Positions 7,827 through 47,614 of a stretch of DNA of 64,000 bases are shown piece by piece (within the stretch, counting starts at the first letter, position 1; the number at the start of each line of letters is the position of its first letter). The stretch lies in the sequence record NC_041906.1; one strand, written 5' to 3'. Position numbers and translations under genes: made by a program. This DNA comes from Escherichia phage EC1-UPM. The notes under the pieces were generated by a model, which ran no database searches, had not been told where the DNA came from, and worked only from the letters and a program-made list of their open reading frames with translations.

Positions 7827-8156
7827 ATGATTAATCCTGAAGTAATTCATAGTAAAACAGGTAAGGCTGTCCCACTTAGTGAGATTGCAGTAACTGGTGA
7901 TATTGCTGCTTGTCCAGCTAACATTGCCTCTCTATGTATGTGCATCGCTGCCCTAGCAGAGGAACGTAAGTTATGGTTGGAACCAAGCAAGGAAATGATT
8001 CAAGCCGGTCTGTCCGAAGTACAGCGTATGCTTGATGAATGGGATGACGAAGGTCACATTCAATTAGGGCACGGTAATGACCCAGTCAGTGATGACCAAG
8101 CAGCAGATTTGGCTGTATTTGTCCTTCAAGCAATGGCAGGTAAACGTAATGGCTAA
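7827..8156 (+). CDS. hypothetical protein
   Basis: ORF track start 7779 is GTG; internal ATG at 7827 with GGAG upstream is preferred. Confidence 0.4.
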   Translation: MINPEVIHSKTGKAVPLSEIAVTGDIAACPANIASLCMCIAALAEERKLWLEPSKEMIQAGLSEVQRMLDEWDDEGHIQLGHGNDPVSDDQAADLAVFVLQAMAGKRNG

Positions 8157-8340
8157 TGTAAATATCGCCTCAGAGAAAACGTATAGCATTCAGATTAACG
8201 GCTTAACCGAATATCAGGTCTTATTCCTAATGAATGCTTTTCAGAATAGTCCTGTAGGTCACCATCCTAATGATGAACCACGGGAAGAAGCTGAACTTCG
8301 TAAAGCTATTTTTGATAAGTGTAAACAAGTTCTAATGTAA
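8149..8340 (+). CDS. hypothetical protein
   Basis: ATG at 8149 overlaps the upstream stop; the longer ORF-track version (8077) overlaps the upstream gene. Confidence 0.35.
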   Translation: MANVNIASEKTYSIQINGLTEYQVLFLMNAFQNSPVGHHPNDEPREEAELRKAIFDKCKQVLM

Positions 8341-8367
8341 GCAACATTTAATCTGGAGAGTAAATAA

Positions 8368-28772: not shown

Positions 28773-31700
28773 TTAGTTAGTAAGGTTGAGCCAAGGGTTC
28801 AGGTTATGGGCACGTAAGCCTTGACCGAAACCGAAGGAGTAACCGAGGTTGCCTTGTGCAGCAATACTAAAGATGTTGTCCTGAATAGGTAAACCAACGT
28901 TACCAAACATGGTAGGGGTTGGAGCCAACATAGCCATAGCTGCATGAACCGGGTTATTACGAATCATGGACACTGCAACTTTTGCAGAACGAATCTTAAA
29001 GTTGTAGAACCACATCAGACCAACACTTTCCATATACCCACGGAAGCGACCTGGTAAACGATCATAGTTAATGAACTCTTCCGTTACACGTCCTAGTGCT
29101 TCTTCACGGGTCTTACCTTTACGCTGGGTCAGTTCATCATAGATGATTGCTTTAGCAATGAAGTCAGAGTACTCAACCGTCTTCTGGATACCCTGGAAGA
29201 GAGCAGTATCCTTAGTGATAAGTGCATAACGACCAGCATTACGTACAGACTTAGGCAACTTATCAGCCAGCTTATCCATGTATTCGTGAAGTTTACCTTC
29301 AGTAATCAGGATATCATCACGACCAATACCAGCATCTGCAATTGAAGAGAACTCACCAGCTTCCAGTAGAGGCCAGATACTCAAACGCTTGTGACTATCC
29401 GTGATGGACTGAATCTCAGCCTTCAGCTTACGAATCTGGTTCGGGTTAGTAGCTGCACGTAATTCTGCTTCTGCATCTACCTGACGCAGGCGAGATTTCA
29501 GGTACTGGTTAATCTCAGCAGTCTTCTGTGGAATGCTCTTAGCAATGTTCTTAACAGGTACACCACGAGCAACCATCTGGTAAAGGTTAGCCAGGAAGTT
29601 AACAGCAGGTACGACTACTGACTTAACTACAATCAGGGTCTTAGCTTCTTTAACTAAGTTCTGAACCAGGTTCTCACCACCCATTACATACTTATAGGCA
29701 CGGTTACCGAATACACCCAGCATAGCTTTCTTGAAGGTATCCAGTGTTTCTGGTGACCAACGAGAATTACCAGACCAGGCATCACCAACAGAAGCTGCAC
29801 GATACCCTAAAGCATCATTAAGCATGTCACGACGTACCCACAATTCACCAGGACCAAACAGACTTTCTGCTTTCCGACGGGTTTCACTGTTCATCAGTTT
29901 AAGAGCATCGGCAGTTACTGGGTCCAGTTTAGAATCAAAAAGGTTCACGTACTGGAACTTATTAGAGGCAGACATCTTAAGGTCATTCTCATACATGCTA
30001 TGCAGGTTCTCAATCAGCATATCGTTGAAACGCTGAGCCTTAGCTTCTTCCACCTGACGCCCACGCCATACACCGATTGCACGAGCAAGATGGTTATCAC
30101 CTTCAATGTGCTTCAGCATGTTGGGGTCAATGGATTGCTCGTAAGCAACCACATTACCATTGGCATCATATACAGGCAGCAGTGGTTCATTACCACGTTC
30201 ACCACGAGCCAGTGCTTTAGTAATACGGTCTACAGAAGGCTTGTCAGTGATACGACCTGCTACCATGGTTCCCATCGTAAAGCCTGTTCCGAGGTCTGCA
30301 CCGCCAGCAGTATTGCGAACGTTCTGCAGGATACCCTGAGAGAATGGAGCCTGTGCCTGTACTGGTGCGAAGTAGTAACTGCGTGCTGAACCACGGTTAG
30401 CAGAACTACCCTGATAAGTACCAAGACGTACATAGGACTTCTCAATCAAATCAGCAAACTGACTATCTTCAGCAACAATCAGGTTAACACCTTGTTTGTT
30501 CTCACTAGGGATATACCCTTTGTACTGGTTCAAGGTTGCACGGCTATCAGACTTAGCTTTAGCCATTTCATCTTTACGCTGACCAACCAGGTAAGAAGTA
30601 GCAAAGTCCATGCCTTCAATTTCTGTCTGAGCCAGTGAAGATAACATCTCACGGTCAGTCTTATTCATTGCTTCCAGTGCATACAGGGTAATCAGTTTAT
30701 CCAGCTGAGCTACATCTACGATAGAACTGGTAGTCTTACGTTCACCCAGCAAACGAGAAATTGCTGTAGCATTACGCAGCAGGTTATTACCAACTGTACC
30801 GTTAATCATGTATTGAGCCAGTTGCTTAGATTTACGGCTAATCAGAGGCCAGTTACGTCCGGCTTGCTTCTGCAAATCTGCTTCAAGTTTATTAACCTCA
30901 CGGTCAACAATCTTCTGGTCAGTCAGTAAGTCACGGATTTCATCCAGAGGCATAGTGTCGCGTAGAACAGCTAAGTCAGTTTTACCCATACCGGTATGCA
31001 TTGCTTTCCACTCATCATTAGTCAGTTTACGGCTGAATTTGGATGCAATAGTGGTAGGTAAATGTTCACGGAATTGCTGACGGTCTGCTTGTACCTGTGC
31101 ACGAACTGCCTTAATCAAATCGTATACAGAAGCATTGCTCTTAGTACGACCAATTATGTCATTAACCAGGTCATGGAATGGTTGCCATACTTTACCCTGG
31201 TTCATTGCAGCCATAACACCTTCAGCTACGATTGCACCATTCTTCTCTGTAGCAATAGCAGCTACCAATTGTGCAGCATGAGCAGCACCTTTAACCAACG
31301 GGTTCTTGGTATTAGCTGCAACTTCACGAGCACCTCCCAGAGCACGGGTAGACAGTACATCAATAGAATCCACCAGATACTGGTTAGCACGGTCAATAGC
31401 ATTGCCAGTAGGAGTAGCAACTGAATCATAGAAAGATTGTGCATTAAGGCTGGTCTGCATGATGGTCTGAGCCAGTGCATCCATACCTTCCTGTACGTTA
31501 GAGGCTTTAGTATCGCCTGCTACACGGGCATTCAGACTAGCCATTGCAGCAGTACCAATGTTAGTCAGCATTGCATCAACAGTATTGCCTGATTTCTTAT
31601 CTGCTTTCATAACAGGAATGTCAGCCAGTACCTTACGTACCTCTTCACTTACCATAGCCAGACCAACAAAGGTAGGTAATAAGGAAGAGCGACCTTGAGC

Positions 31701-34700
31701 ATCAAACTCAATGTTGTTAGCACCCATAATGGTATCGAACTTCTGCTGTGCATAATAACGGTCAGCAGGGTTAGTACTATCTGGGTCAGCCATGAATGCT
31801 TCGACGGTCAGGTTCTTAGTAACGTGTGTATAGTATTCCTGTGCACGAGCCATGGCAGCAGGATTAATAGCAGCCTCGGTAGCGAGTGCAGCAACAATGT
31901 TAGTGAAGAGACGTTGTTCCTGCATGTTCATGGTGAAGCCATGAGCCTGAACATCACGAGTTACTTTGGTTGCATTCACTACTGCATCAGAGAACTTACC
32001 TTTACGAATTACTTGCTGTACTGGTTCCGAACCAATGTAGTCAGTAATCAGTTTATCAAAGGTTTTCCCTAACTCTTCCAGACGAGTATTGTTACCGTAT
32101 GCTTTGTTATGGAACAGAGTAGTGTCTTTAGCTACAGCAGCAGTAGGAGCTTGTCCACGCATTACTACAGCAGAGTTAAACAGTAAACCTGAGAACATAT
32201 CATCTGCATTAGCAGGAGCTTTCTTACGACCAAATACCAGACGTTTGATTGCCTCATATACAGCCTGAACCATAGCCTTAAGTGCAGTGGTTTTCTTCTG
32301 CTTACTAATCAATTCTCGGTTGGTTAAACCCCAGGCCATGTACTCGTTCAATGCAGCAGCTTTAGCCATTGCTGGTTCAATGAAGCCATTAGACAAGTGA
32401 CCATTAATGGTATTAAGTGCATCAGCATATGCTTCACGTACTGCCGGAGATTCATCCTTAACATCCAGAGTACGGAACTGGTTCATCAGGTCTTCAATGT
32501 TCTGGACTGCTTCATTAGGAGTACCCTCGTAGTGAGCCAGTACAGATTCAAAAGTAGAAGCATGTACCAATTCATGAACCAGAGTCTCTAAGGAAGGGGT
32601 AACTAAGTAGATGGTTTTATCTTCAAAGTTAGTCCAGCCATATGCATTACCAGCTTCAGCAGCTTCAATATCTTCCGGTGCTGGGCGAGTAATATTCTTC
32701 TCAATGGCGTAGGCATCCAGTTGAGCAGGTGTACCGTAAACAACTTTATAGTCTTTAGCAGCAAGGGATTTCTGTATTTCTTTCAATACTGCTTGCTGTT
32801 CAGGAGACATCTCTTTAGCCAGTTTAGTAATGGCAGTATTAGACAGTAGACGTACACCAGATTTCAGTACACGACCAACCATCTCCATAGCAGGTACTTC
32901 AACCACTGGCACTTCCTTCACTGGTTCTACCTTCGTTGGTTCCGCTTTAGTAGCACGTACTGCTTCACGACGCTTGTTTAGTTCAGCATCAAACAGTTCG
33001 TTCAGCTTAGCTACTTGCTGGTCTACAGTAAGACCTTCCAAAGAAATTTTACCGTTGTTCACATAAGGAGCGCCTACAGCAGCCATCTGGTCAACAGTGA
33101 CCTGTACCTGGTCCATTACCTTGTGACGAATATCTACACCCAAAGCAATGTTACGCAGATTACGCTCAATCAATGCAATACCAGAATCTCTAATCATAGA
33201 AATTTTATAATCTCTATCACCATCTACTCTGGCAATATGAGCACGTTGCTCAAAGTCTAAAGCAGACTTCGCAATAGCATCTATTGCTGCATCGGATAAC
33301 TTATTTAAATCAACATTCTTAGCAAACTTAGAGAAAGACTCATATACATTCTTGATAGGGTTACCCTGCCAGGAAATATATACAGCCTCATTAGCTTTAC
33401 GGCTTGCATCAGTAATGTCATTGATACCAATGTTCATACCATCAAAGATTTTCAGGGTATTCTTCGGAGCACCTTTCATAGTAGAAAGGGTCTGCATCAT
33501 CATGCCATCACCAGTACCGATGGTCATAAATGGAATACCTGCTACACCTGCCTGCGAAGGAGCATAGATGCTCATTGGCACACGCATACGGTCATCTAAG
33601 TTGGTAGCCAGTACCTGGTTAGCAACATCAGTGTTTTCACTGCCAGCAATGTAGAAAGTCTGTGAGCCAGTCTTAATCATTGGAGCCAGAGGAGCTAAGC
33701 TATTCTGAATTTCATTCAGTTCTTTCTGTGTTAAGAAATCACCCTTCTTCCATGTTGGGTCTTTTTCTTTTTCTGCCAGCTTAGCCTGTACTGCTTGTTG
33801 GAACATATCCTGCAATACCAGAGATTGAATCTGAGTAGCCTTCTGCAAATTCTCAGTAGAGTGCATCAACCCCTCACCAACAGTGAACCGGATACCTTGT
33901 CTCATTGGCTCAACAAAGAAGTGCAGCATATTCTCTTGTAAGTTCTTCAGAGAATCCCCGGATACGGTAAACCCCTGGGGATTTAACTCACCAGTCAGAA
34001 CACCATCTACTTCCTTAATAAATAACCTACCTTTGCGTTTGGCTGGAATTTTGCCAGTCAATGCTTCCATAGAAGTAAGGAAGGTATCCAGCATAGCCTG
34101 AGCATCAGCCTCAGACGCAGCCTCCTTACCAAACATCGCCATAGCCGGAGAAATGCTAGGGTCAGCAGCACGTGCTTTCAGAACATCGCTTAGGCGTTCA
34201 TAAATGGAATCAGTAATTGCACTTACCATTTTGCCAGCAATACCACGAGCACCAGAACCATAGATGGTAATGGTCAGTGGGTTTTTGGCGATACCACGTT
34301 TCAGGTCCAGAGTACCATCTTCATTCAAGTTAAAATCTTTGATGAACAAATCCATTAACTTCTGGAGATGGTCTATCTGGTTTATAACAGAAATATCCTT
34401 ACTATAAGCATTGCGTAATTCATTTAGATAGAATTGCAGACTATTAGTAGATGCTTCATACAGGTCAACATCGTCTTCCTGAGTATGATGCTCATTCATA
34501 GTCTTACCAGCTTTACCAAAGAACAAACCACCTTTAGCAGTATTCTTAATCCAGTTTGAAGTGAACTTACCTCCAGTCATTAATACCATTGCGTTGATTG
34601 GACCGTTGGTTACACCATCAGCTTCAACGTACAAAGGAGTATTAAAGTTGGCACGGTCATCACTGTTCAGGTAACGGGCATATTCCATAAGAGCCATGAG

Positions 34701-37700
34701 AGCTACAAAGGATTTATCATTACCAAGAGATGTTCTCAGGATATCCACTGCATCAGTTGGTAAGTATCCAGACTTATCAAACTCAACCATCATATCTACA
34801 GCAGGCTTCAGCTTACCTTCCAGAGCTTTGGTAAGTTCTTCTGACATAGTTTCACGGGTCATTTTATGAACTTTGATACCCAATGCCTGAGCCAGTCCAA
34901 GCTGGAAGCCTGAAAAATCTTCGTTGTTCTGGTTCGATAAATCCAGGGTAGCTTTGGTAGGTAAGATAGCCTCACGAACCAGCTTAGCTGATTGGGGGGT
35001 ATATTTACCTAACATCTGCATACGACCAACACGGGTCATATTGTAAGCATAGTGGATAGGTACAGAAGAAATGTCTTTACTCTGTGCTCTTACCTGTTCA
35101 ATAACAGAGAACAATTGGTTATAAGAGTCTTCTACTGAACGGTTCTTACCTTCCAGCGATTTAGCGTGGTTCTCGTTAAGTAATTCTTTATTCAGAGTAC
35201 CAGCACCCATCAGTTCGAGGATACGGTCTTTACCTAATGCCTCATAGAACTGAACCATTGGGGTATGTACAAAGAACTCTGTATCCTGTTCTGCTTTAAG
35301 AGCAGCTTTCTGTTCTGGAGTATTACGAACAGCAGGGTTACGTAACTGTGTATGAGCCACGGAAGGAATATCATCACCCAGATACAATTTCTCTGCTGGT
35401 TCTAAGAGTACAGCCTCCTCGATAGCAGTAGGATAATTATTAATTGCATCATTATCTTCTAACTTATCAATGGTATACAGACCAATCGTCTTATTGGATT
35501 CTGGGTCAATCTCAGACACATCCAGCATAGACTCTTTAACTTCACCCATCTCAATGAAAGAAGACAGAATCTCTGTAGCCATTGCCACTGGGATACCCTT
35601 GGTATAACCAAGTGGTGCATCGGCATTACGGTTAAGCCCCCAGTAAGACTCAATCTTTTGAGCCAGTGAGTTAGTAGCTTCAACCAGGGTCTGAGCATTC
35701 TCGAAGTCAGCCAGAATACCTTCTGGTAACAAAGACTCATTTACACCAGTAATAGCAGCTACGTCTTTCATGTCTTTAATGGCAGCATTCTGTGTAGCAG
35801 TAAGTCGCCATTGCAGACCAGCAAGTACAGCAGTCTCTAACAACTGGTCATTGAACTTAAAGGTATCACCATCTTTTTCTACGATGTTAAGTAACTTACC
35901 ACCCACCCAACGGTTAGCCTCAGTCCCTTCTGCAAAACGTTTACCAACGTTCTTGTTAGCAAGGAACTTAGCCAGACGGTCAGACAGGGTAGTCTTCAGA
36001 GTTTCACCGAAATCAAATAAGTCCTGATAACGCTTAATCACATCACTTGTGAGAGCGTTATTTTCTTTTTGAGTGAATGCTTCAAAGCGAGCAACGGAAG
36101 ACAATGCTTTCTTAACATCAGTCAAAGGAGACTCGGAACCAATGGTACGAGACTTAGGTTCTTCTGGTAGAGAAAATGCTTTAAGGAACTGGTTCGGTGT
36201 CTTGTCATTGTTATAGACAGGGAACACTGTTTCCATTTGAGATAGAGGTTTACCACCAACGGTATAGTCTGCTTTCAGTTGAGCCAGAGATACTTCTTCC
36301 TTCTCAACGTTATTAGTGTTACGCCCAGACGTATCTACACCAACCTGAATCAGTGCATTGTTTGCTTCTACAAATGATTGAACAGTATTAAATTGTTCAG
36401 GAGTTAGTTTCTGATTATCAAATAGTTGTAAAGATACAAATGGTTGTTCACTGCCTTTGTAGAAGGTAGAGCGAATAGCACCAGTATCTAGTGACATATC
36501 TCGATAACCATCGTGTCCAAATACATCAGACAGACTGATGTGGTCGCCATTGGAACCAACAACAGTACCATCAGCAAATAACCATGGACTCTCCCTACGA
36601 TCACCATACTTATTAAGAGTATCTTGAGAAATGGTATTCTCTTTTACATAAGCATCCTGTTCAGATTCAGTAGGTTGCTCGATGGTATCCTCATTAGTGA
36701 GGGTAGCATCCTGTTTTTCAGACTGATTCTCAGGTTCTTTTACAGGCTGTGGTTTAGACTCTTTAGTAGTGGGTTCTGTTTTAACAGCTTCACTAACAGA
36801 GGGTTTAGTCTGTACAGTAGGGGTAACTGGTTCCTGTTTTGTAACAGGAGTTTCATCAACCTGATTCACTGGTTCACTAGTCTGTTGGGATTGAGCAGCA
36901 TCAAGATTGCCCTGACGGAACTCTTTAACTACCTGGGCAGCAGGCTTGTCTAGACGTGAATCCAATGGGGTAACTTTAACATGAGAAACATTAAGCTCCG
37001 GGTAAGCCGTAGCAAGTGCGTTAGCAATATCAGCTACGGTCTTGGCTTCCAGTCCTACTTGCTGGGCAAACTTAACCGACTTGGTATCATACGGATTGAC
37101 ACCGAGGCCAGTACGACTACGTACCCATTCACGCGAAGGAGTAAGAGCCTGATAATGGACAGACTTATTCTTATCCGCATTCCCAGAAATCAGATGCTCA
37201 TTCAACGCTCCGACCTTATTCTGCATGTGCTGGGCGAACTTCATAAAGTCGTCGAGATAAGCGGAAGCCAAATCGAAGTTACCAGAGTTGTACGCAGAAC
37301 GAATGCGTTTAGCATGTTGCAACGCAGAGTACTGGCCTTCATTAGAACGAGACTCGTCGGTTTTAATTTGTTTACTAACAATGTCCTGAGGACGTAAGCC
37401 TAGTTCTTCTGCTTTAGCGTCAAATTCTCGTGCTCCTTGCAATAGAGCAGCAGCAGATTGCAGGGCAGCACGCTGACGATTCCCTAGCGTAATCTTACCT
37501 TCACTTGCATGTTTCAGAACCATGTTCACTGAGTCTGCATCCAGTACTTCTGGAGACATATCAGCAGCCATAGCAATGTTGTTTGCCTGGGCTTGGTTAG
37601 CTTCTTCAGTAGCCTTCAGTTTACCTGCTTCAGCCTGTTCCTGAATCATGGAATGAATAGCACGGAATGCACGGAGTACCTTCGGTGTATTCTGAACGTT

Positions 37701-39629
37701 AGCCATCAGGCCAGAGAACTGGTCTACGATTGCAGCAGCAGGAGAACCTTGTTCCAGATTAGCCAGAGCACCTGGGTCACGGTTAATGAAGCTATCCATA
37801 GACATGATGTTGTCATACATCTGGATTGCAGCTTCCATTTGAACGTTAGGGTCTTCAGCAGTATTAACCAGGTCAGCCATTTTCTGAATAGCTTCAACAC
37901 GGTTAGTGGAACCAGAAACAGCTTCACGGATTGCAGGACTAGCTTGTTCTAGTTCTACTGGGTCAAACTTCATTGCCTGAGTTAAGTCAGCAGCATACTG
38001 AGTAGCAGCAGCTTTCTCTTCAGGAGAAATATCCATTGCATCTACTGCTTCCTGAACAGTTGCTTGTGCTTGTTCTGCCTGAGCAGTAGCTTCTTGTGCA
38101 GCAGCGTTAACTGTAGCGTCTGATACGGGAGATGCTTGTTCATTACGCTTAGCTACTTCTTCCCCACGTTGAACCAGAATGTTAGTAATAGGAGAAGCTA
38201 CTTTTGCTAGTGCCTTACCAGCCAGAGAAGCACCAGCCAGGGTAGTACGTACAGCAGGACCAACGGCAGCACCAGCAGCCTTAACAGTTGCACCAGGAGC
38301 TTGAGCAACTCCAGCAGAACCAAAGCCATACAACGCACCAAGACCAGTTTGTTCACCCACACCTTTAAGCAATTCACGATTAGCATCTACATTACCTTGA
38401 ATTGCTTTGTTCTGTGCAAACTGACTTGTACCAGACTGGATACCTTCTTCCACAGTTTCACGGAGCATGTTAGAACCAGCACCGGCCAGTGAACCTACCT
38501 TGAGTGGGTTAAGTTCAAACTTAGATACCAGTGGACCAGTAATAGCAGCAACCGGAGCAGTTAAGCCAGCAGCAGTGATACCTGTTTCAGATGCAGTCTG
38601 ACGTCGTGCCTCTTCAGGAGTTAAGCCGTCTTTAATATGCTGTTGGTATACTGGGGATTTAGCAGCCAGTTCACTGAATGGCATTTCCATAATTTCATTG
38701 GCAGTCTGTTGGTATGCACCACCAGCTTCCATACCACCAATTGCTATAGCAGGTGCAGCAACACGACCAGTAGCTAATGCAGTACGTGCAGGACGTGAAC
38801 CTAATTCAGCAGCTAAGGTAATACCCTTAACAGCTTTATCTCCACCTACCATTACTTTACCTAGTGCAGATACACCACGAATTAATGGGCCACCGGTAAA
38901 GAGAGAACCAACACCCTCAGCCAGACCATCTGTAGCAGCCATGCCATTAGATAAGGTGTTAGCAACAGAATCATAAGCATCACGACCGATACGAGACAGG
39001 GAAGCAACGAGTTCACTTTCTCCTTTATCAATATCCTGCTTATAGAGTTTCTCATTTTCCTGTGCAGATATTACGTTCTGGTTCTGTACTACATTACGAC
39101 GAGCATTCAATGCATCAGACTGTAGGTTGTGTACACCTTTATTCAACCAGTCAAGACCGGAAGCAATGGATGCCCCGGCATTATCATTGACCAAGCCTGT
39201 GCCAAGAGCAGCAATGCCCCCGAGGGTATTAGCAACACCAAGACCAACACCAGAAAGGGTATCACCAAGTGCTTCACCATATGTACGACTCTTAGTTAAA
39301 TCACGACGAACAGCATTAGCTGCATTGACACGAGCATTGAGAATATCCATTCCTTGCTCATTGCCATATTTATTTATGATTTCGAGAGGAGAGGCATTAG
39401 TAAAATCTGCCTGAATAGAACCTGGGTCAAATGCACCAGCACCTAAGTTACCAGCACGACCTGCCTGTAATTGGTAAGCGTTCTGTGGAGTTAATTGGAA
39501 AGGGTTTTGCCCTTGTTCAGCTTGTTTCCGAGAGGTTGCAGTAGAGACATCGACTTGCTTAGCAGTAGTGATGCTGTCTGCGAAACCTGCCAGACGGTCA
39601 AATGTTGACATAGCATGATTCCTGTTCAA
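28773..39629 (-). CDS. virion-encapsidated RNA polymerase (N4 gp50-like giant vRNAP)
   Basis: 3618-aa ORF; contains T7-like single-subunit RNAP motif A (EADGVTNGPINAM, cf. T7 DGSCSGIQHFSAM) and motif B (RGIAKNPLTITIYGSG = RxxxKxxxxxxxYG); size and position match the N4 virion RNAP. Confidence 0.85.
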   Translation of the reverse strand: MNRNHAMSTFDRLAGFADSITTAKQVDVSTATSRKQAEQGQNPFQLTPQNAYQLQAGRAGNLGAGAFDPGSIQADFTNASPLEIINKYGNEQGMDILNARVNAANAVRRDLTKSRTYGEALGDTLSGVGLGVANTLGGIAALGTGLVNDNAGASIASGLDWLNKGVHNLQSDALNARRNVVQNQNVISAQENEKLYKQDIDKGESELVASLSRIGRDAYDSVANTLSNGMAATDGLAEGVGSLFTGGPLIRGVSALGKVMVGGDKAVKGITLAAELGSRPARTALATGRVAAPAIAIGGMEAGGAYQQTANEIMEMPFSELAAKSPVYQQHIKDGLTPEEARRQTASETGITAAGLTAPVAAITGPLVSKFELNPLKVGSLAGAGSNMLRETVEEGIQSGTSQFAQNKAIQGNVDANRELLKGVGEQTGLGALYGFGSAGVAQAPGATVKAAGAAVGPAVRTTLAGASLAGKALAKVASPITNILVQRGEEVAKRNEQASPVSDATVNAAAQEATAQAEQAQATVQEAVDAMDISPEEKAAATQYAADLTQAMKFDPVELEQASPAIREAVSGSTNRVEAIQKMADLVNTAEDPNVQMEAAIQMYDNIMSMDSFINRDPGALANLEQGSPAAAIVDQFSGLMANVQNTPKVLRAFRAIHSMIQEQAEAGKLKATEEANQAQANNIAMAADMSPEVLDADSVNMVLKHASEGKITLGNRQRAALQSAAALLQGAREFDAKAEELGLRPQDIVSKQIKTDESRSNEGQYSALQHAKRIRSAYNSGNFDLASAYLDDFMKFAQHMQNKVGALNEHLISGNADKNKSVHYQALTPSREWVRSRTGLGVNPYDTKSVKFAQQVGLEAKTVADIANALATAYPELNVSHVKVTPLDSRLDKPAAQVVKEFRQGNLDAAQSQQTSEPVNQVDETPVTKQEPVTPTVQTKPSVSEAVKTEPTTKESKPQPVKEPENQSEKQDATLTNEDTIEQPTESEQDAYVKENTISQDTLNKYGDRRESPWLFADGTVVGSNGDHISLSDVFGHDGYRDMSLDTGAIRSTFYKGSEQPFVSLQLFDNQKLTPEQFNTVQSFVEANNALIQVGVDTSGRNTNNVEKEEVSLAQLKADYTVGGKPLSQMETVFPVYNNDKTPNQFLKAFSLPEEPKSRTIGSESPLTDVKKALSSVARFEAFTQKENNALTSDVIKRYQDLFDFGETLKTTLSDRLAKFLANKNVGKRFAEGTEANRWVGGKLLNIVEKDGDTFKFNDQLLETAVLAGLQWRLTATQNAAIKDMKDVAAITGVNESLLPEGILADFENAQTLVEATNSLAQKIESYWGLNRNADAPLGYTKGIPVAMATEILSSFIEMGEVKESMLDVSEIDPESNKTIGLYTIDKLEDNDAINNYPTAIEEAVLLEPAEKLYLGDDIPSVAHTQLRNPAVRNTPEQKAALKAEQDTEFFVHTPMVQFYEALGKDRILELMGAGTLNKELLNENHAKSLEGKNRSVEDSYNQLFSVIEQVRAQSKDISSVPIHYAYNMTRVGRMQMLGKYTPQSAKLVREAILPTKATLDLSNQNNEDFSGFQLGLAQALGIKVHKMTRETMSEELTKALEGKLKPAVDMMVEFDKSGYLPTDAVDILRTSLGNDKSFVALMALMEYARYLNSDDRANFNTPLYVEADGVTNGPINAMVLMTGGKFTSNWIKNTAKGGLFFGKAGKTMNEHHTQEDDVDLYEASTNSLQFYLNELRNAYSKDISVINQIDHLQKLMDLFIKDFNLNEDGTLDLKRGIAKNPLTITIYGSGARGIAGKMVSAITDSIYERLSDVLKARAADPSISPAMAMFGKEAASEADAQAMLDTFLTSMEALTGKIPAKRKGRLFIKEVDGVLTGELNPQGFTVSGDSLKNLQENMLHFFVEPMRQGIRFTVGEGLMHSTENLQKATQIQSLVLQDMFQQAVQAKLAEKEKDPTWKKGDFLTQKELNEIQNSLAPLAPMIKTGSQTFYIAGSENTDVANQVLATNLDDRMRVPMSIYAPSQAGVAGIPFMTIGTGDGMMMQTLSTMKGAPKNTLKIFDGMNIGINDITDASRKANEAVYISWQGNPIKNVYESFSKFAKNVDLNKLSDAAIDAIAKSALDFEQRAHIARVDGDRDYKISMIRDSGIALIERNLRNIALGVDIRHKVMDQVQVTVDQMAAVGAPYVNNGKISLEGLTVDQQVAKLNELFDAELNKRREAVRATKAEPTKVEPVKEVPVVEVPAMEMVGRVLKSGVRLLSNTAITKLAKEMSPEQQAVLKEIQKSLAAKDYKVVYGTPAQLDAYAIEKNITRPAPEDIEAAEAGNAYGWTNFEDKTIYLVTPSLETLVHELVHASTFESVLAHYEGTPNEAVQNIEDLMNQFRTLDVKDESPAVREAYADALNTINGHLSNGFIEPAMAKAAALNEYMAWGLTNRELISKQKKTTALKAMVQAVYEAIKRLVFGRKKAPANADDMFSGLLFNSAVVMRGQAPTAAVAKDTTLFHNKAYGNNTRLEELGKTFDKLITDYIGSEPVQQVIRKGKFSDAVVNATKVTRDVQAHGFTMNMQEQRLFTNIVAALATEAAINPAAMARAQEYYTHVTKNLTVEAFMADPDSTNPADRYYAQQKFDTIMGANNIEFDAQGRSSLLPTFVGLAMVSEEVRKVLADIPVMKADKKSGNTVDAMLTNIGTAAMASLNARVAGDTKASNVQEGMDALAQTIMQTSLNAQSFYDSVATPTGNAIDRANQYLVDSIDVLSTRALGGAREVAANTKNPLVKGAAHAAQLVAAIATEKNGAIVAEGVMAAMNQGKVWQPFHDLVNDIIGRTKSNASVYDLIKAVRAQVQADRQQFREHLPTTIASKFSRKLTNDEWKAMHTGMGKTDLAVLRDTMPLDEIRDLLTDQKIVDREVNKLEADLQKQAGRNWPLISRKSKQLAQYMINGTVGNNLLRNATAISRLLGERKTTSSIVDVAQLDKLITLYALEAMNKTDREMLSSLAQTEIEGMDFATSYLVGQRKDEMAKAKSDSRATLNQYKGYIPSENKQGVNLIVAEDSQFADLIEKSYVRLGTYQGSSANRGSARSYYFAPVQAQAPFSQGILQNVRNTAGGADLGTGFTMGTMVAGRITDKPSVDRITKALARGERGNEPLLPVYDANGNVVAYEQSIDPNMLKHIEGDNHLARAIGVWRGRQVEEAKAQRFNDMLIENLHSMYENDLKMSASNKFQYVNLFDSKLDPVTADALKLMNSETRRKAESLFGPGELWVRRDMLNDALGYRAASVGDAWSGNSRWSPETLDTFKKAMLGVFGNRAYKYVMGGENLVQNLVKEAKTLIVVKSVVVPAVNFLANLYQMVARGVPVKNIAKSIPQKTAEINQYLKSRLRQVDAEAELRAATNPNQIRKLKAEIQSITDSHKRLSIWPLLEAGEFSSIADAGIGRDDILITEGKLHEYMDKLADKLPKSVRNAGRYALITKDTALFQGIQKTVEYSDFIAKAIIYDELTQRKGKTREEALGRVTEEFINYDRLPGRFRGYMESVGLMWFYNFKIRSAKVAVSMIRNNPVHAAMAMLAPTPTMFGNVGLPIQDNIFSIAAQGNLGYSFGFGQGLRAHNLNPWLNLTN

Positions 39630-39714
39630 ACTTATATCGTATAAGAAGATTCACTGTACAGTAAGTGAATGTAAGAGAAAAGCCCCGGATGGGGCTTTAT
39701 TAGTATGTAAGATT

Positions 39715-41661
39715 TTATCGAGGTTGCATATAGGGAGGTAAACCCTCTGCTAATTTTCGATAACGTTTAGCTCGTTCTTCATCTTCACGACTGCGTTCAC
39801 GCTCTACGGAAGCATTAGAACGGAAGTTCTGTGGAACCAGGTTCCCTTGATTAGCTACCACAGTATTAACAGCAGCATCCAGTGCAGCCCGTGCTCTTAC
39901 TAACTCAGCTTCACGAGCAGGAATAGTAGCAGCAAGTCCGCTTTGACCAGCAGCCACACGACGACGAGTATCAGCAAGTAAGGTTTCTGCTTGATCTACC
40001 TGGTTCTGGGCATTAGCAATATTACCCTGTACCTGAGTAAGAACATTATCACGAGCAGTAGCTTCAATGCCTTCCCCACGTCGCACTGAACGTGCTAGTT
40101 CTCTGGCAACGGTATCGTCAATACGAATACCATTACCACCTTCCGGTGATTTCCCTGGTGTAAGCGCATCCCAGGTACGACCAAGAATACCCTCTGGTAC
40201 GTTTGTAATAGATTGCTTAAGAATCTCAGCAGCTACAGCAGGAGACTGCCCCGATTCCTGCATAACTTTATTCAGTCGAGCTACCATCCATCCTTTCTCA
40301 GAACCTTTAAAAGCATCCTTGAGAAGACGGTCTGCTACTTCACCAATGGTGGAGTTGTCACGTAATGCACGAGCATAGTTAGCAGTAATGGTTCCAGTAT
40401 TATCTTCAGACTGGCGTGCAGCAACTGTATTGCCTGCCATGTTTGAAACTACTTGCTGGGTCTGTAGCTGGTCAAGAGGTGCACCTACTTCTGCCTGTGC
40501 AATTAACTGACGTGCTTCACTCCACGGCATATCCTTATAACCACCTACACCCAAGTCAGGCAATGCAGCCCAAGTCTTGGAAAGGTTACCACTCTTACGG
40601 TCATTAAAGATTGCTTCAGCTATTTTGTCCTGTACTTCAGGAGTCATTTGCTGATTACGCCAGTCTGAACCAAGTACCTTAGGTGCATAGTCTTCCAGGG
40701 TAGCTTTATTAATCTGGAATGCTCCTACAGGGGAATGACCTTGTGACGGGTTATTAATCATAGTTTGCTGATGATTAGTAACCTCACCCAGTGTCATTTC
40801 AGTAATAGGCTTATCAGTAGCAGCAAAGGTATAGGTTGCATCATAAGGGGAACCAGAACGAGTACCAGCAGTTCCAGGAGCAGAGCCAGAAGGGGATGTA
40901 GCATAAGTACCAGGGAATCTCTCGTTCACACCCCGCATGATTGCAGAACGTACACCTGGGGAAGCATTCTGCATAGCAGACTCTGCCAGTGTAAGAGCAT
41001 CCATAGGAGTGGAAGCACTACGGAAGATGTCAGTCAATATACCGGATGCAGCTTGTGAATCAGCATCATTACGTTGACGTACATTAAGGTCAAAGCGACT
41101 ACTTGCCTGATTAATAGCAGCACCACCTTGCCCCTGAAGACGGCTCAACATATCCAGTTGTTGGTCAGCAGGAAGTGCAGATAATGCATCACGGGTTTGA
41201 CCTAATGCAGTATTAATACGGTTCTGGTCACCTGACTGATAAGCCTCAGACAGCAAACGAATAGCCGGTGAAGCATTATCTAGGGCAGAGTCAGTATTCT
41301 GTAAACGACCGAAACGATAAGCATTGTAGTCATTGGTTCCTTGCTGACCTTGCTGAGTCAGAAGAGTACCTGCTCGCTCATCCAGATTCTGAAGAGTACG
41401 CTGACTTACTAATGAAGGGTCAACCCCCTGGAACAATGCACCTGATGCTAAAGCATTACGATACTCAGTAGGGTCTTGGTATCGCATAGCATTCATCATG
41501 ACGGCATTGCCAGCCTCCTGCTTGGCAGCGTTCTGGAAATTACCCAGTGCATCACTTAAGCCGGAGGTAGCGTTACCAATCATGTTTCCAAATGTGCGAA
41601 TGCTGTCACCTACTCCAGAGAAGTTAGGTGCATCAACATTTCTCCATGTTATCTGGCTCAT
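39715..41661 (-). CDS. virion/ejection protein (N4 gp51-like position)
   Basis: 648-aa ORF immediately upstream (in transcription order) of the vRNAP gene; Gln/Asn/Ala-rich. Confidence 0.5.
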   Translation of the reverse strand: MSQITWRNVDAPNFSGVGDSIRTFGNMIGNATSGLSDALGNFQNAAKQEAGNAVMMNAMRYQDPTEYRNALASGALFQGVDPSLVSQRTLQNLDERAGTLLTQQGQQGTNDYNAYRFGRLQNTDSALDNASPAIRLLSEAYQSGDQNRINTALGQTRDALSALPADQQLDMLSRLQGQGGAAINQASSRFDLNVRQRNDADSQAASGILTDIFRSASTPMDALTLAESAMQNASPGVRSAIMRGVNERFPGTYATSPSGSAPGTAGTRSGSPYDATYTFAATDKPITEMTLGEVTNHQQTMINNPSQGHSPVGAFQINKATLEDYAPKVLGSDWRNQQMTPEVQDKIAEAIFNDRKSGNLSKTWAALPDLGVGGYKDMPWSEARQLIAQAEVGAPLDQLQTQQVVSNMAGNTVAARQSEDNTGTITANYARALRDNSTIGEVADRLLKDAFKGSEKGWMVARLNKVMQESGQSPAVAAEILKQSITNVPEGILGRTWDALTPGKSPEGGNGIRIDDTVARELARSVRRGEGIEATARDNVLTQVQGNIANAQNQVDQAETLLADTRRRVAAGQSGLAATIPAREAELVRARAALDAAVNTVVANQGNLVPQNFRSNASVERERSREDEERAKRYRKLAEGLPPYMQPR

Positions 41662-41673: not shown

Positions 41674-42144
41674 TTAACGAGTTAGCTTGTTAGCTGCAAT
41701 GTAAGCATCAGCTGAAGACTGGTCACGGTTTTCTGCCGTAGCACGACTACGAGCACGGTCTTCAAGTGCAGTGTTATAAGACTTAATCTGGTTATTCAGG
41801 TTAGTGTTAGTAACACTCTTAGCAAAGTTCAGCTGGTCTTTGGCTAACTTATTAGCCTGAAAACCACTATAGATATTTGCTAACGAACCAAGAGCACCCA
41901 GTCCTAGTTGGAAGGTAGGTATGTTCATACCAAGCTGGTCAGCTGAGCCATTACCCGAACCAAACAGTGAGTTATCTAGGTTTCCATTTAAAAAATCCAT
42001 ACCAACTACCTGTCCTGGCTGATAATTCATAGCTGGGGTATTAAAGTTCTGATTGTTATTAGACATCCAAGACATAGCAGCTGGCTGTGGGGTTTGGTTG
42101 CCTGTAAAGAATGACAAATCCATGGGGATTCTCCTGTTAAACAA
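41674..42144 (-). CDS. virion protein (N4 gp52-like position)
   Basis: 156-aa Asn/Gln-rich ORF, stop overlaps next gene. Confidence 0.45.
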   Translation of the reverse strand: MFNRRIPMDLSFFTGNQTPQPAAMSWMSNNNQNFNTPAMNYQPGQVVGMDFLNGNLDNSLFGSGNGSADQLGMNIPTFQLGLGALGSLANIYSGFQANKLAKDQLNFAKSVTNTNLNNQIKSYNTALEDRARSRATAENRDQSSADAYIAANKLTR

Positions 42145-44791
42145 GGTCAGTATTAAGAGTCATGTCAGAGTAGTTACCTATCATATCTAGAGACAAGTCA
42201 GCTATATCTGAACCAGTCATGAGCGTACGTGATAAGAATGAATCCAGCGACTCTATTGACACGAATTGCATTGGGTCAATTACACCCTGTCCAGCAGTAC
42301 CAAACATTTCTTCATACTGCTTATTGATTGCCATCATATCAGTATTGTACTGCTGCATTACTTTCTCTGCTTTCTGAATAGTAGCAGCCGTAGATGCATT
42401 AATATACTGGCTGATACCATTACCCACTGAACTGGTAAGCTGCATGATATTTTGGGCATTCATCATCTCACTCGCCAGAGTAGATAGAGATGTACCGGTA
42501 GACAAAGCAGTACCAACATTCATAGCTACCATTGAAGCGATAGCAGCAATGATAAAGCCCAGCTTGTCCCCGAACAGTGCGGCAGATACTTTAGTGATAA
42601 TAGATACAAGAATCATTCCAGCAATAGCATTTGCTACAGCACCCACTATCACAGCAGCTAATCCAACAAAGCCAAGTGATGCACCAACTGCACCATACGC
42701 TCCAAGTATACCTGCTCCACCAGCACCAGCTGTAAATACAGAGATAACCACAGCAACTACAACAACCAAAATCTTAAAAGCAGAGGAATGATACCATTTC
42801 TTCTTAACCTTCTTATATGAGTTCATCACTAAGTAGGAACAGGCAGTAGATAACTGAGTACTTCGAACCAGTGACATGGAACGGTATATGTTAGTGTGTA
42901 GTGGAATAATGAATCCACTTTCTTCTGCATCACCCATTGCCCCAGCAACATCAATGTGTACTGATTTATTCTTATATACCCTGTTATAGTGATTTAGACC
43001 CAGTACTCTTAGTTTACGGTAAGTGTTATTACCATCCTGCCAAAGTAACTCGTATTCCTGCATAGTGTAAAATGTAGGAGTAACCTCCAATTCCTTAACT
43101 GAACCGGAGTTACGAGAGGTACGCATATTCTTGCGAGTAAGGGTTATATCCCCTGCATACCTGGCTCGAAGCTGACCCTGTTTAGCACCAGGCCATGCTT
43201 TACCGGAGTGAGTAGTTTCAAATACATAGTTCCAGCCAATAGTCATGTCATACTTGTAATGTTTACTGCTATGTACCCTAAACTCTCGCTTAGGTATGAC
43301 AGGGTATTCCGGCAGTGGAGGGGGTGTTCCAACAATATGACCTTCATGCCTGTTCCACCATTCTACATATGTATCAACCGCATCATTGGCTGCCTGATAA
43401 CCTGCAATTACTGCTTCCAGAGTAGGGTAGGTTGGGTCAGGCGGAAATGCTTCAGTAGCCATCTGAAAGAAACGGTAGATGTATTCCTTAGCAGTATCCT
43501 CTGGGGTATTAAGAGATACACCGAATGTGCCATAAATGTATTGGATATCGCCTATGTCCTTATTCTTCTTAAGCTCAGTTATTACATTATTGAGTTTACC
43601 ACCAGTAGCTTTATAAAGAGCTTTCTTACAGTGAGGGTAGATTGGGTCATTCTCTACCCATTGTTTATCATTCCTGATCGGAATGAATGGGTAGAATCGG
43701 TTGTCAGTAGCTTCAGTCTCAAACAGTGAATCCAGTACAACGTTACCAGAGTTCTGTTTATAGATAAGCATCTTAGGTGTACCAACAGCAGTCATCTCAG
43801 TATCAGTACGAGTAGTCTGCGATGAATACTTACGAACCAGTGTCTCTGTGGTTGTAGTAATTGTATCAGTACGAGTAACACCACCACCTATATCAACTAC
43901 ATTAGTAGTTACAGAAGTACTGGATTGAACCTCACCAAACTTTTTATGAGTCATTACCCTGTCAGATACAACCACAGTTACATCATTAGGTTTCTCAGTA
44001 AATCCTCTACGGTAAACCTTAACGTAGGAGTTCCAGTTATCCACACTTGGTTCAGTGACGGTACTGTCTTCATCCGGTCTACCGTCAGAGTAAACAGAAT
44101 GAGTATGTATAGTCTTAGTAAGGTTAGTTGTATTAGCCGTCGTATCACTTGAGACAGTAGTCCATAACAAAGTGGAGGGTAAATCATCCTCATTATCATA
44201 GACAGTAGTTGGTCCCTCTACCGGTGGATTGGTAGATGGGGACTTATAGAATGAGTAATCAGCATAGAGATACAAAGCACCTGGTTCAAAGTTAGTGGGT
44301 GTGAATTTAATAGTAGAACCTCCATCCAGGGAGGTCATAGTAATTTCATTAGTATCTTCATCAATATCTATGTCGAATCGTTCCATGATTCGACTTGGAG
44401 CATTCTCATAAAGATACTGGTCACACCATTGTTCAAAGTCAGCAAAGCCAATCTCTGCTGCCTGAACATAAACAGACTCTCCAGCAGGTGGTGTAATTTG
44501 ACCCTCTATTACAGTAGGGTCAATCTTAGCCAGTACACCTAATGAAGAACCAGCCATACCAACTTCTGAATCATAGTGGTTCTTACTCCAGCTGGAGAAC
44601 AGTCGCATACGAATACCAGGTCCATTCATATAACTATCAGAGATAGTGTCTGCCATAGTGAATCCTGTATTGGAAACAATGTTACCAATGACTACAGTCT
44701 TCATATAGTTAGGACGTTTGTGTATATCCCCTGCCATGTTATAGACAGAGGATGCTACGTATACTTTGGTCTTCCCACTGAATAAACCCAT
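42137..44791 (-). CDS. large virion protein with Gly/Ala-rich multi-helix hydrophobic region (N4 gp53-like position)
   Basis: 884 aa; C-terminal ~150 aa contain consecutive hydrophobic Gly/Ala-rich segments (VVVAVVISVFTAGAGGAGILGAYGAVGASLGFVGLAAVIVGAVANAIAGMILVSII...). Confidence 0.5.
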   Translation of the reverse strand: MGLFSGKTKVYVASSVYNMAGDIHKRPNYMKTVVIGNIVSNTGFTMADTISDSYMNGPGIRMRLFSSWSKNHYDSEVGMAGSSLGVLAKIDPTVIEGQITPPAGESVYVQAAEIGFADFEQWCDQYLYENAPSRIMERFDIDIDEDTNEITMTSLDGGSTIKFTPTNFEPGALYLYADYSFYKSPSTNPPVEGPTTVYDNEDDLPSTLLWTTVSSDTTANTTNLTKTIHTHSVYSDGRPDEDSTVTEPSVDNWNSYVKVYRRGFTEKPNDVTVVVSDRVMTHKKFGEVQSSTSVTTNVVDIGGGVTRTDTITTTTETLVRKYSSQTTRTDTEMTAVGTPKMLIYKQNSGNVVLDSLFETEATDNRFYPFIPIRNDKQWVENDPIYPHCKKALYKATGGKLNNVITELKKNKDIGDIQYIYGTFGVSLNTPEDTAKEYIYRFFQMATEAFPPDPTYPTLEAVIAGYQAANDAVDTYVEWWNRHEGHIVGTPPPLPEYPVIPKREFRVHSSKHYKYDMTIGWNYVFETTHSGKAWPGAKQGQLRARYAGDITLTRKNMRTSRNSGSVKELEVTPTFYTMQEYELLWQDGNNTYRKLRVLGLNHYNRVYKNKSVHIDVAGAMGDAEESGFIIPLHTNIYRSMSLVRSTQLSTACSYLVMNSYKKVKKKWYHSSAFKILVVVVAVVISVFTAGAGGAGILGAYGAVGASLGFVGLAAVIVGAVANAIAGMILVSIITKVSAALFGDKLGFIIAAIASMVAMNVGTALSTGTSLSTLASEMMNAQNIMQLTSSVGNGISQYINASTAATIQKAEKVMQQYNTDMMAINKQYEEMFGTAGQGVIDPMQFVSIESLDSFLSRTLMTGSDIADLSLDMIGNYSDMTLNTDLV

Positions 44792-44792
44792 A

Positions 44793-45635
44793 TTAGTTCA
44801 GCCCGTTGTTAGACTTCAGCTTGGTCAGAATGGTATCAATACTTGCGTTAGTGAAACCATTAGGTGGATTCAAGCCTTCATCAATAGTCTTCTGAGTAAT
44901 CCATGCATCAGTAAACAGCTTGGATGCTTTAACTTCTGCATCACGTTGGTAAGAGGTAATCTGTTGGGTATACAGATCTTTCTGTTTACCAACAGAACCT
45001 TTAACTACTGCACCATCTGTACGAGTGTCCAGAGTCTGTGCACGTTGTGCTTCGGTCTGCTCGGTAAGCAACTTAAGCTGCTGAGGTAACATCTGCCCGA
45101 CATTAAACAATGCAGCACAGTACGTTTCAGACTCAGTAGCAATCTTCATCTTAGTAAGGGCATACTCACTCTTAGCAGACAGTGCCTGAAGCTTAGCTAG
45201 TACAAACTGAGCTTTAGAGGTAGCCAACGTAACACGAGCAGTAACTGCCTGAATCTGTGCCAATGCAGCAGCCCAGTATGCCTGGTCACGACCAAGTAAG
45301 AACTGAACAGCATTACTCATGCACGATTCCATCATAGCAATGTATGCTTTGGTGTATTCACCACCTGTAATACGGTTAGCCTTAAACTCAGCCTTAAGGT
45401 GATTGTGTGCAGATTCCATTAATGCATCAAACGTACCACTACCACCTACTTCACGAGTAGTAAGAGATTCATTGGTTATTTTGGTAATAGCACCAAAGAT
45501 TGGAGAACCATCCCCACCTGGGATATCCCACTCAGGACCGGACATATCAATATCAGGAAGGGTAAAATCATCACCCTTAGTCAACTCCTCAAGGAGTCGG
45601 TTAGCTTCTACCTCAGCAGAACAAGACATAATCAT
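44793..45635 (-). CDS. virion structural protein (N4 gp54-like position)
   Basis: 280-aa ORF within the structural operon. Confidence 0.5.
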
Positions 45636-46411: not shown

Positions 46412-47614
46412 TTACAGAGGAGCAACAGTCTTAATCAGAGCCAGACGTTCTGGGCGTTTAACCAGAATACCATAGTACCACTTGATAGAACTGAAGCCAG
46501 TTTCACCATACGGGTCGTTACGGTCAGCAGTTTCTTTACCAGGCATCTTAGTCATGATGGTGAACTTAACAGACTTACCATCAGTCTGGAAGCCAATGGT
46601 AGAGAAGGAGTCATCACCAACTACCAGCATCGGGAATACGTCGTAGTGCTCCTGACCAGATACCATAGAGGTACGGTAGCCTGGGTTAGTAGTAACCTGT
46701 GCACCAGCACCTGCCCAATGCAGCATCTCAGGAACCTGGATAATACGGAACTTATCAATACAACCGATTTCACCATTCATCAGAGTACCAGCGTCAGCAT
46801 AGTGCTGAATTTCAATGAATGCTTTGTTACCGAACAGGTCTTTCATCGCTTTCAGTTCTGGAACCAGTTCAGAACCTACGTACATTACACGAGTACCACC
46901 AAGTACTTTGGTATCTGTCAGTTTAGAACCAGTGATGATAGTAGTCTGGGTCGGAGTACGGTTCTCAGTAAGAATCTGGTCAAGACGCATCAAGTTCTTA
47001 TAAGAAACTACAGACGGGGTAGCACCTTCACCGGTGATGGTAGCATCAGAGACAGCAGCACCTGCATACAGTACAGTACCGGCAGCAGCCAACAGGTCTT
47101 TCTGAAGAACAGCCTCAGTCAACTGTACAGCACCATTCATCAGTTCACGGGACAGGTGTTCTTTCAGTTGGTCATCAGAATCAAAGTCCAGAGACTCTTG
47201 GGTAAATTCGTAGAAGAAGCCGAACTTATGAATAGAGCCTTCACGAGCAAGACGAGTGAAGCCTACACGGTTAACACGACCACCGTTCTCTGACAACAGG
47301 GGCAGTTTAGAGGTGATGTTACCAACGTCTTTAGAAGAACCATACAGGTTACCGTTAACGATGGTAGCACCATTAGCATCAATACCCTGGTCGTTAATGT
47401 TCTTATCGTCGAGCAGAGGAACGTACTCATACACCTTAACAGTCTTACCGTAGTTCTTCGGCATGTTAACGGTGTTAGCTAGAGGCATGAAATACTGGTC
47501 TTTACGGGACTGAATAATAGCCTTCTTCAGCCAGTAATAGGTATTCATCTGGTCGGAACCAGCACCATCAATGCTAGATTTCTGACCGTCAATTGGAGCG
47601 TTATAGTTTAACAT
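46412..47614 (-). CDS. major capsid protein
   Basis: 400-aa ORF with strong codon regularity located between portal/scaffold-like and virion genes; size matches the N4 major coat protein. Confidence 0.65.

Follow-up and report, generated by a model that had tools for sequence, protein, structure and literature searches.

The 64,000-nucleotide (nt) stretch of Escherichia phage EC1-UPM DNA studied here (NC_041906.1; the window, below, means this whole stretch) contains at 28773..39629, on the minus strand, an open reading frame (ORF) of 3,618 codons when read from a TTG codon, and no internal stop was present in the ORF listing or the translation. This ORF almost certainly encodes the virion-encapsidated RNA polymerase (vRNAP, the gp50 homologue) of a G7C-like Gamaleyavirus, one of the N4-like Schitoviridae, and most likely works as N4 gp50 does. 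An earlier note on this DNA had placed a single ORF of ~10.9 kb at 28773-39629 without giving its strand; the same coordinates were recovered exactly, the frame is uninterrupted, and the coding strand is the minus strand. By our own arithmetic, the probability of an open frame of ~3,600 codons is ~1e-75 given ~5% stop codons, so the ORF is not a chance frame. Translation most likely begins at the ATG at 39611 rather than at the TTG at 39629, because AGGA lies 8 nt upstream of this ATG and the N terminus predicted from it, MSTFDRLAGF, resembles the MSVFDRLAGF of N4 gp50; the product would then have 3,612 amino acids (aa).

The identification is carried by homology over the full length of the protein. 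In a phmmer search of PDB sequences, the protein matched the full-length 3,500-aa N4 vRNAP (11gp, 9pnq, 9pnr, and others) with E=0 over query residues (q) 1-997 and 1139-3611, and the mini-vRNAP crystal chains (2po4, 3c2p, and 3q0a) matched over q1139-2219. A Pfam scan returned N4_RNAP_helical (3.9e-99), vRNAP_dom_2 (3.4e-55), vRNAP_dom (2.7e-51), and vRNAP_plug (1.6e-25), with the vRNAP subdomain families PF21894, PF21867, PF21769, and PF21624, the plug included, all far above the gathering score, and the PHROG 2206 profile (virion RNA polymerase) matched with E=0 over aa 25-3611. At the nt level, megablast aligned the gene over 100% of its length, at 93.8% identity, to the gene annotated as vRNAP in Escherichia phage vB_EcoP-ZQ2 (ZQ2); 57 records cover at least 80% of the gene, none of them reaching 95% nt identity, and identity to the vRNAP genes of pSb-1, St11Ph5, Bp4, ECBP1, and G7C (all Gamaleyavirus, Enquatrovirinae, Schitoviridae) is 87-94%. 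When the proteins were aligned with MAFFT, the aa identity of the window vRNAP was 97% to ZQ2, 89% to G7C, and 68% to N4, the last over 3,479 aligned positions.

Based on the full-length homology to N4 gp50, the four Pfam domains (1e-25 to 1e-99), PHROG 2206, and the annotated ZQ2 gene, the recognition of an N4-like vRNAP in the earlier note is borne out. The gene also anchors the classification of the window, as that note had proposed, and the window belongs to the Schitoviridae, Enquatrovirinae, Gamaleyavirus. The protein family is well studied and already annotated and close relatives of the phage have been sequenced, which makes this an ordinary finding and nothing new; as a gene call it serves classification only, in that it assigns the window to a G7C-like (Gamaleyavirus) phage of the N4 type and marks the gp50-gp52 ejection module.

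The residues used by the polymerase were compared in a four-way alignment, in which the N4 polymerase residues carry mini-vRNAP numbering. Both of the motifs that had been quoted for this ORF, motif A (EADGVTNGPINAM) and motif B (RGIAKNPLTITIYGSG), are present, motif B fits RxxxKxxxxxxxYG, and their catalytic residues align with those of N4; motif C and TxxGR, which had not been listed, are likewise conserved (Table 1). The hairpin-promoter residues R1225 and W1235 (-11G contact and stacking), found in the context GKRFA.GTEANRWVGGKLL, correspond to N4 R119 and W129, and an additional conserved residue counted among the promoter contacts, D2007, corresponds to N4 D901. In this alignment, all the residues with a known importance in N4 are kept, each within an identical local context. 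The salt bridge of the N4 clasp, D2012-R2279, is replaced by E2121-R2392 in the window protein, so the charges of the clasp are kept. That the ORF might be a polymerase-dead or decaying relic, a giant structural protein that no longer transcribes, is very improbable, given a reading frame that is intact across 10.8 kb, the conservation of all catalytic and promoter-contact residues, and a ratio of nonsynonymous to synonymous substitution (dN/dS) of ~0.07-0.18 in the polymerase domain.

Table 1. Features of the vRNAP gene and its surroundings, with the pairwise dN/dS of each vRNAP segment; the CDS (coding sequence) and all residue numbers follow the most likely start, ATG 39611. NTD and CTD, N- and C-terminal domain.
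Feature	Position in window	Strand	Residues or length	Remarks	dN/dS vs ZQ2	dN/dS vs G7C
Complete vRNAP CDS (gp50 homologue)	28773..39611	-	3,612 aa	10.8 kb; stop codon 28773-28775		
AGGA ribosome-binding site	39620..39623	-		8 nt upstream of ATG 39611; read directly from sequence		
NTD	36909..39611	-	aa 1-901	61% identical to N4 NTD, most diverged part	0.059	0.159
Low-complexity linker 1	36636..36908	-	aa 902-992	rich in P, T, E, K, Q; = N4 residues 907-~1004	0.453	0.279
Insert domain	36231..36635	-	aa 993-1127	no counterpart in N4	0.038	0.049
Polymerase domain	32943..36197	-	aa ~1139-2223	counterpart of N4 mini-vRNAP, 73% identical; vRNAP_dom_2, vRNAP_plug, N4_RNAP_helical, vRNAP_dom match	0.069	0.171
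T/DxxGR motif, TRVGR	35022..35036	-	aa 1526-1530	R1530 = N4 R424		
Motif A, EADGVTNGPINAM	34587..34625	-	aa 1663-1675	catalytic D1665 = N4 D559		
Motif B, RGIAKNPLTITIYGSG	34251..34298	-	aa 1772-1787	R1772, K1776, Y1784 = N4 R666, K670, Y678		
Motif C, KIFDGMN	33432..33452	-	aa 2054-2060	catalytic D2057 = N4 D951		
Linker 2	32880..32942	-	aa 2224-2244	joins polymerase domain to CTD; N4 linker 2102-2123 (PMC13434306)	0.558	not computable
CTD-C1, zincin-like subdomain	32148..32879	-	aa 2245-2488	contains HELVH	0.045	0.068
HELVH (HExxH)	32562-32576	-	aa 2346-2350	aligns with N4 HELVH at 2228		
CTD-C2, large helical subdomain	28776..32147	-	aa 2489-3612	71% identical to N4	0.040	0.095
Bidirectional intrinsic-terminator hairpin	28743..28766	.		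10-bp stem; begins 6 nt past vRNAP stop		
gp51 homologue	39715-41661	-	648 aa	ejection module		
gp52 homologue	41674-42144	-	156 aa	ejection module		
gp53 homologue	42137-44791	-		upstream of vRNAP		
gp54 homologue	44793-45635	-		upstream of vRNAP		
Major head protein homologue	46412-47614	-		upstream of vRNAP		
Portal homologue	49229-51499	-		upstream of vRNAP		

The window protein is collinear with N4 gp50 (YP_950528.1; PDB 2PO4, 3C2P, 3Q0A, 9PNQ, 9PNR, and 11GP) over its full length. Both have the order NTD, linker, polymerase, linker, CTD-C1 (with HExxH), and CTD-C2, both contain the plug module and lie in the same gp50-gp51-gp52 operon, and the residues of TxxGR, of motifs A, B, and C, and of the R119/W129-type promoter contacts are identical. 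The window protein is 112 residues longer than N4 gp50, and a domain of ~135 aa follows its low-complexity linker. The HExxH of N4 CTD-C1 has already been described by Bellis et al. in 2026 (PMC13434306), and this region of the N4 vRNAP was placed in the superfamily of zincin-like metallopeptidases (MPTases) by Iyer et al. in 2017 (PMC5512222). In pairwise comparisons of the window vRNAP with ZQ2 and with G7C, purifying selection acts across the whole protein and its relaxation is confined to the two linkers; the dN/dS of the insert is the lowest of all segments against G7C and among the lowest against ZQ2.

At the downstream end of the gene, the G7C record carries an equivalent terminator annotation at the corresponding position. 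In the gap that separates the stop of gp51 from the start of the vRNAP, a GC-rich hairpin at 39679-39698 (minus strand; AAAGCCCC-ATCC-GGGGCTTT) followed by a T-rich stretch is seen in the sequence, although the terminator scan did not report it, and no sigma-70-like promoter was found between this hairpin and the vRNAP start. The plus-strand ORFs of 101-138 aa that lie within the vRNAP gene were taken to be by-products of the long antisense frame. In the GenBank records of several relatives, the vRNAP gene has a wrong name ("DNA polymerase," "gram positive anchor domain protein," or "hypothetical protein"), and in the pSb-1 record it is split into three CDS.

Several observations weigh against reading this ORF as a working N4-type vRNAP. 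In the Pfam scan of the vRNAP, the general T7-type RNA polymerase model gave no match at E<=1; this absence fits what is known of the N4 vRNAP, a very divergent single-subunit RNA polymerase (RNAP), and the relation to T7-like RNAPs is structural and motif-level, as published for N4. An AlphaFold2 model of aa 1139-2223 built from a 3-sequence alignment reached a pLDDT of 39.2 and a pTM of 0.26, and the fold is taken from homology: a palm fold around the motifs would be expected from the 73% identity over ~1,080 residues to 2PO4, 3C2P, and 3Q0A, which makes the question of a palm fold, raised in the earlier note, moot. Matches to the promoter-hairpin pattern AAGCGNAGCTT do not exceed chance in the window (5 with one mismatch versus 3.1 expected). 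The same pattern, as a positive control, recovers N4 P2 upstream of gp2; it is not enriched in the window because the early region, with the expected hairpin promoters and the RNAP II genes, lies outside the window, which begins at the homologue of gp17 (decoration protein). Finally, the presence of this protein in virions and its injection would follow from experiments on N4.

For the window protein, sequence identity, domain content, conservation of the named residues, and gene context come from the present analysis, and packaging, injection, and promoter specificity come from N4 experiments. Each N4 virion contains 4 +/- 1 copies of the vRNAP. The N4 NTD is required for injection and inserts into membranes (PMC13434306 and PMC5512222), and the N4 CTD is required for encapsidation and autoinhibits the polymerase; the earlier suggestion that the large flanking domains have ejection and capsid-retention functions agrees with this published work. 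The N4 vRNAP has been proposed to move as beads on a string, and its linker 1, which is low-complexity and disordered, is treated as a passive tether of ~100 residues in the N4 structures of 2026.

If the window protein behaves as its N4 counterpart does, a few vRNAP copies would be packed in the capsid in a manner that needs the CTD, and after receptor binding gp52 and gp51 would form a trans-envelope channel. The vRNAP would then be threaded through the tail and a conduit of ~30-35 Å as loosely joined sub-domains, one domain after another, with the NTD going into the inner membrane and the polymerase domain and CTD refolding in the cytoplasm while linker 1 keeps them attached to the NTD. R1225 and W1235 would let the T7-like polymerase domain read promoters in hairpin form. 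The enzyme would be held in a closed, autoinhibited state by the plug, the motif-B loop, and the CTD until hairpin promoter DNA binds, and the early genes would then be transcribed by use of TxxGR and motifs A, B, and C.

The window vRNAP shares with T7-like single-subunit RNAPs the T/DxxGR motif, the aspartates of motifs A and C, and the RxxxKxxxxxxxYG of motif B, and the right-hand fold is known from the N4 crystal structures. Unlike the T7-like enzymes, the polymerase in the window is embedded in a protein of ~3,600 aa, and an N4-type vRNAP travels inside the virion, uses hairpin promoters, contains a plug module, and is autoinhibited by its CTD. The crAss-like phages also pack a large RNA polymerase in the capsid, from which it is ejected to begin early transcription; the catalytic fold of these virion polymerases is different, being of the two-barrel type and not T7-like, and the present searches, none of which was aimed at them, showed no relationship in sequence. 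"Crassvirus" is mentioned in PMC13434306.

The part of the vRNAP that has no N4 counterpart is the insert domain. HMMER split the alignment to N4 at q998-1138, and in the MAFFT alignment the Gamaleyavirus proteins have ~120-135 residues at this place versus ~25 in N4. The insert has the signature SPWL..DG..xGDH...TGAIR...GQxLTxEQ; in an alignment of 20 sequences, S1008, P1009, L1011, G1015, D1023, H1024, R1047, and Q1073 are invariant, and D1004, W1010, D1014, G1044, T1070, and N1101 are nearly so. A tblastn search found the insert in 27 of 50,697 phage records, all of them Gamaleyavirus and always within the vRNAP gene, with 92-99% identity across all 27 carriers; when a distant family member was the query, the same 27 phage records were recovered and nothing further. 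The Gamaleyavirus vRNAPs compared here (ZQ2 QWY13177.1, pSb-1, St11Ph5, Bp4, ECBP1, and G7C AEL79661.1) contain the same insert domain in the same place.

Outside this group, an index-free HMMER scan of 1.84 billion representatives recovered 22 relatives of the insert at E<=1e-3, of which 9 were at E<=1e-10 and one is a vRNAP fragment. Homologues in unrelated proteins are 24-65% identical to the insert, and the closest non-vRNAP copies are at 65-70%. The domain is found in large multi-domain proteins, among them one of 3,675 aa (P0005), in which SLT, the insert-like domain, a ResIII/SNF2 helicase, a methyltransferase, and LPD39 are listed in this order, and one of 3,253 aa (P0006), in which the insert-like domain is listed ahead of a methyltransferase, ddrB-ParB, and LPD39. 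Others combine it with LPD38 (P0007, 1,551 aa, and P0018, 2,655 aa), LPD22 (P0009, 2,190 aa), SLT (P0011, 1,482 aa), InPase (P0017, 2,097 aa), or DUF7831 and Peptidase_M78 (P0023, 2,676 aa), and a protein of 1,181 aa (P0020) contains a TrwC relaxase and AAA_30. A relative of 3,597 aa (P0014) is itself a very divergent vRNAP, with motifs A and B at 1938 and 2038, HExxH at 2562, and a CTD match of 1e-57; its insert domain, at 1279-1411, again lies upstream of the polymerase domain.

The sole plasmid match, from Vibrio, is a protein of 1,417 aa in the relaxase position after mobC, with a coupling protein of a type IV secretion system nearby. The possibility that the insert is a divergent LPD7 was rejected from this protein, as its LPD7 (aa 699-777) lies apart from the insert-like segment (~1083-1204). 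A stand-alone copy of 166 aa (7294-7794 of segment L006) adjoins a ParB_N/HTH_ParB gene on a phage-like metagenomic contig (ENA ERZ23491061). This contig also has a Prok_Ub / Prok-E2 / JAB / ThiF cluster and a gene resembling that of a CCA-adding enzyme.

No Pfam family was common to more than one of the insert and 19 homologous segments (best E 0.034), and the insert and its homologues had no match in NCBIfam or in PHROGs. A profile search of the PDB with the insert gave a best E of 0.021, on a stretch of 37 residues only. Among the Pfam models for LPD, ART, lysozyme, and PBECR domains, none is matched by the insert, a comparison that did not extend to the non-Pfam LPDs of Iyer et al., and the insert goes unmentioned in the papers searched on G7C-group phages and on the full-length N4 vRNAP. 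In an indexed protein search, the insert alone returned 0 matches, the polymerase domain 2 proteins, and the insert profile only one (P0013); these results are silent on rarity because the collection evidently is without giant vRNAPs.

Polyvalent proteins are giant, multi-domain, and delivered with DNA, and the vRNAP resembles them in combining its RNAP with the zincin-like HExxH. Iyer et al. (2017; PMC5512222) class the N4 vRNAP as a polyvalent protein, describe lineage-specific fusions of vRNAPs with ART, lysozyme, and PBECR1, and define 40 LPDs, only a part of which is represented in Pfam. In the window, a zincin-like HExxH (MPTase) domain likewise stands beside the RNAP module in a multi-domain phage protein, and the insert recurs in proteins with LPD38, LPD39, LPD22, InPase, ddrB-ParB, SLT, the SNF2/ResIII helicase, the methyltransferase, and TrwC. 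From these comparisons, the insert is, as judged by its sequence relatives, an uncurated domain of ~135 aa that polyvalent proteins and relaxases also carry, a modest but real addition to an ordinary gene finding.

As to what this domain does, we tentatively propose that it may be an accessory, early-acting module, enzymatic or (in view of the invariant D, H, R, and Q) binding a nucleic acid or other ligand, that would be held near the DNA entry site and would stand outside the transcription machinery. A more specific version of this proposal, which we hold to be possible but doubtful as a whole, is that the insert is an undescribed polyvalent-protein domain with a conserved D-H-R-Q site, gained by domain shuffling with the polyvalent proteins of phages and conjugative elements in Gamaleyavirus and, independently, in at least one very divergent vRNAP lineage, and that it serves as an early effector (counter-defense or directed at DNA or nucleotides) delivered with the polymerase and tethered where the DNA enters. 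Structure prediction assigned no fold to the insert: a single-sequence AlphaFold2 model of the insert had low confidence (pLDDT 49.7), and a Foldseek search of the PDB with this model gave a best E of 0.09 at TM<=0.3 and nothing at E<=0.001. The secondary structure predicted in the same low-confidence model is mixed alpha/beta, not coil.

The insert could instead be a structural or translocation module of proteins that are threaded with DNA, such as one more "bead," a site at which the ejection or secretion machinery docks, or a membrane-proximal spacer. All carriers are DNA-translocated or predicted to be so (vRNAPs, phage-type polyvalent proteins, the TrwC relaxase, and the LPD7 protein in the relaxase position), the domain occupies the same site, directly upstream of the polymerase domain, in two very divergent vRNAPs, and the beads-on-a-string proposal for N4 would accommodate it. 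However, N4 and most Schitoviridae are without the insert, which shows that a vRNAP can be ejected without it. In polyvalent proteins its position varies (N-terminal, central, or C-terminal), the 166-aa copy stands alone beside a ParB-like gene, and an active site or a binding site is where invariant D, H, R, and Q would more typically be expected. On balance, we consider a translocation role somewhat unlikely.

A far less probable explanation is that the insert is merely a lengthened flexible tether without a function of its own, in which case the protein would be an N4 gp50 with a longer linker. The insert does lie within linker 1, the segment that is low-complexity and disordered in N4, the length of linker 1 varies among phages (by a further ~140 aa in G7C), and the low confidence of the single-sequence model would suit a flexible segment. 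However, the dN/dS of the insert (0.038-0.049) is below that of the catalytic domain (0.07-0.17), whereas true linkers have values of 0.28-0.56, and homologues with the eight invariant residues exist in unrelated proteins. The low dN/dS, the 92-99% identity in all 27 carriers, and the predicted mixture of alpha and beta structure argue that the insert is not linker filler.

A selfish element, that is, an intein or an insertion associated with a homing endonuclease as in G7C-like genes 16 and 39, was rejected as having practically no chance of being correct: although G7C-group phages do have intron/homing-endonuclease insertions in the polymerase genes g16 and g39 and an HNH homing endonuclease is annotated nearby in the ZQ2 record, the insert keeps the reading frame without stops, has no intein, Hint, HNH, or LAGLIDADG Pfam match even at E<=10, occurs as a fixed feature of all 27 Gamaleyavirus records, evolves under strong purifying selection at the protein level, and has homologues that are internal domains of polyvalent proteins.

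Returning to the accessory-module proposal, the recurrence of the insert in DNA-accompanying relaxases and polyvalent proteins makes it a candidate, and a tractable one, for a new activity in early infection. This extends the polyvalent-protein concept by an increment and is not surprising. The G7C vRNAP differs from the window protein in having a second insertion of ~140 aa in linker 1 (G7C aa 967-1109), upstream of the common insert, which has no counterpart in the window. Since G7C carries this second insertion, linker 1 seems to be a place where modules are readily gained; it can host extra ones, with one in the window, two in G7C, and the same domain in the same place in a distant vRNAP.

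The vRNAP gene lies in the gp50-gp51-gp52 ejection operon, with homologues of head and portal genes upstream on the same strand (Table 1); this operon of ejection proteins is conserved in the Schitoviridae. When window positions 1-25000 and 39630-64000 were compared with other genomes, the nearest sequenced phages, ECBP1, ZQ2, Bp4, and PD38, were 93-94% identical over 82-95% of the sequence, and ~18% of the late and tail region was without a close match. By these values, the phage is probably a new Gamaleyavirus at the species level.

Two further stretches of the window were noted outside the ejection operon. Between the gp47 and gp48 homologues, N4 (8113-9633 of segment L002) and ZQ2 (5429-6905 of segment L001) each have ~1.5 kb without an annotated gene, and the corresponding stretch of the window, 25457-26933, contains only short ORFs and two inverted repeats (26410-26459 and 26633-26712). 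On the plus strand at 27200-27520, three repeats resembling a tRNA T-arm (GGTTCGAWTCC) lie at 27301, 27431, and 27498; the one at 27301 is followed by ACTGGTA-A-CCA, and the complementary TACCAGT is found at 27202. No tRNA was called in 27200-27520 by default ARAGORN or by Rfam (even at E<=1), and relaxed ARAGORN settings gave inconsistent calls, such as a tRNA-Ser(gga) at 27230-27325. At the counterpart of this region, the records of relatives have "tRNA-OTHER" or "tRNA-Undet" as the annotation, and window 27423-27520 is ~80% identical to the DNA of a T4-like phage. The T-arm-like repeats are probably degenerate tRNA genes.

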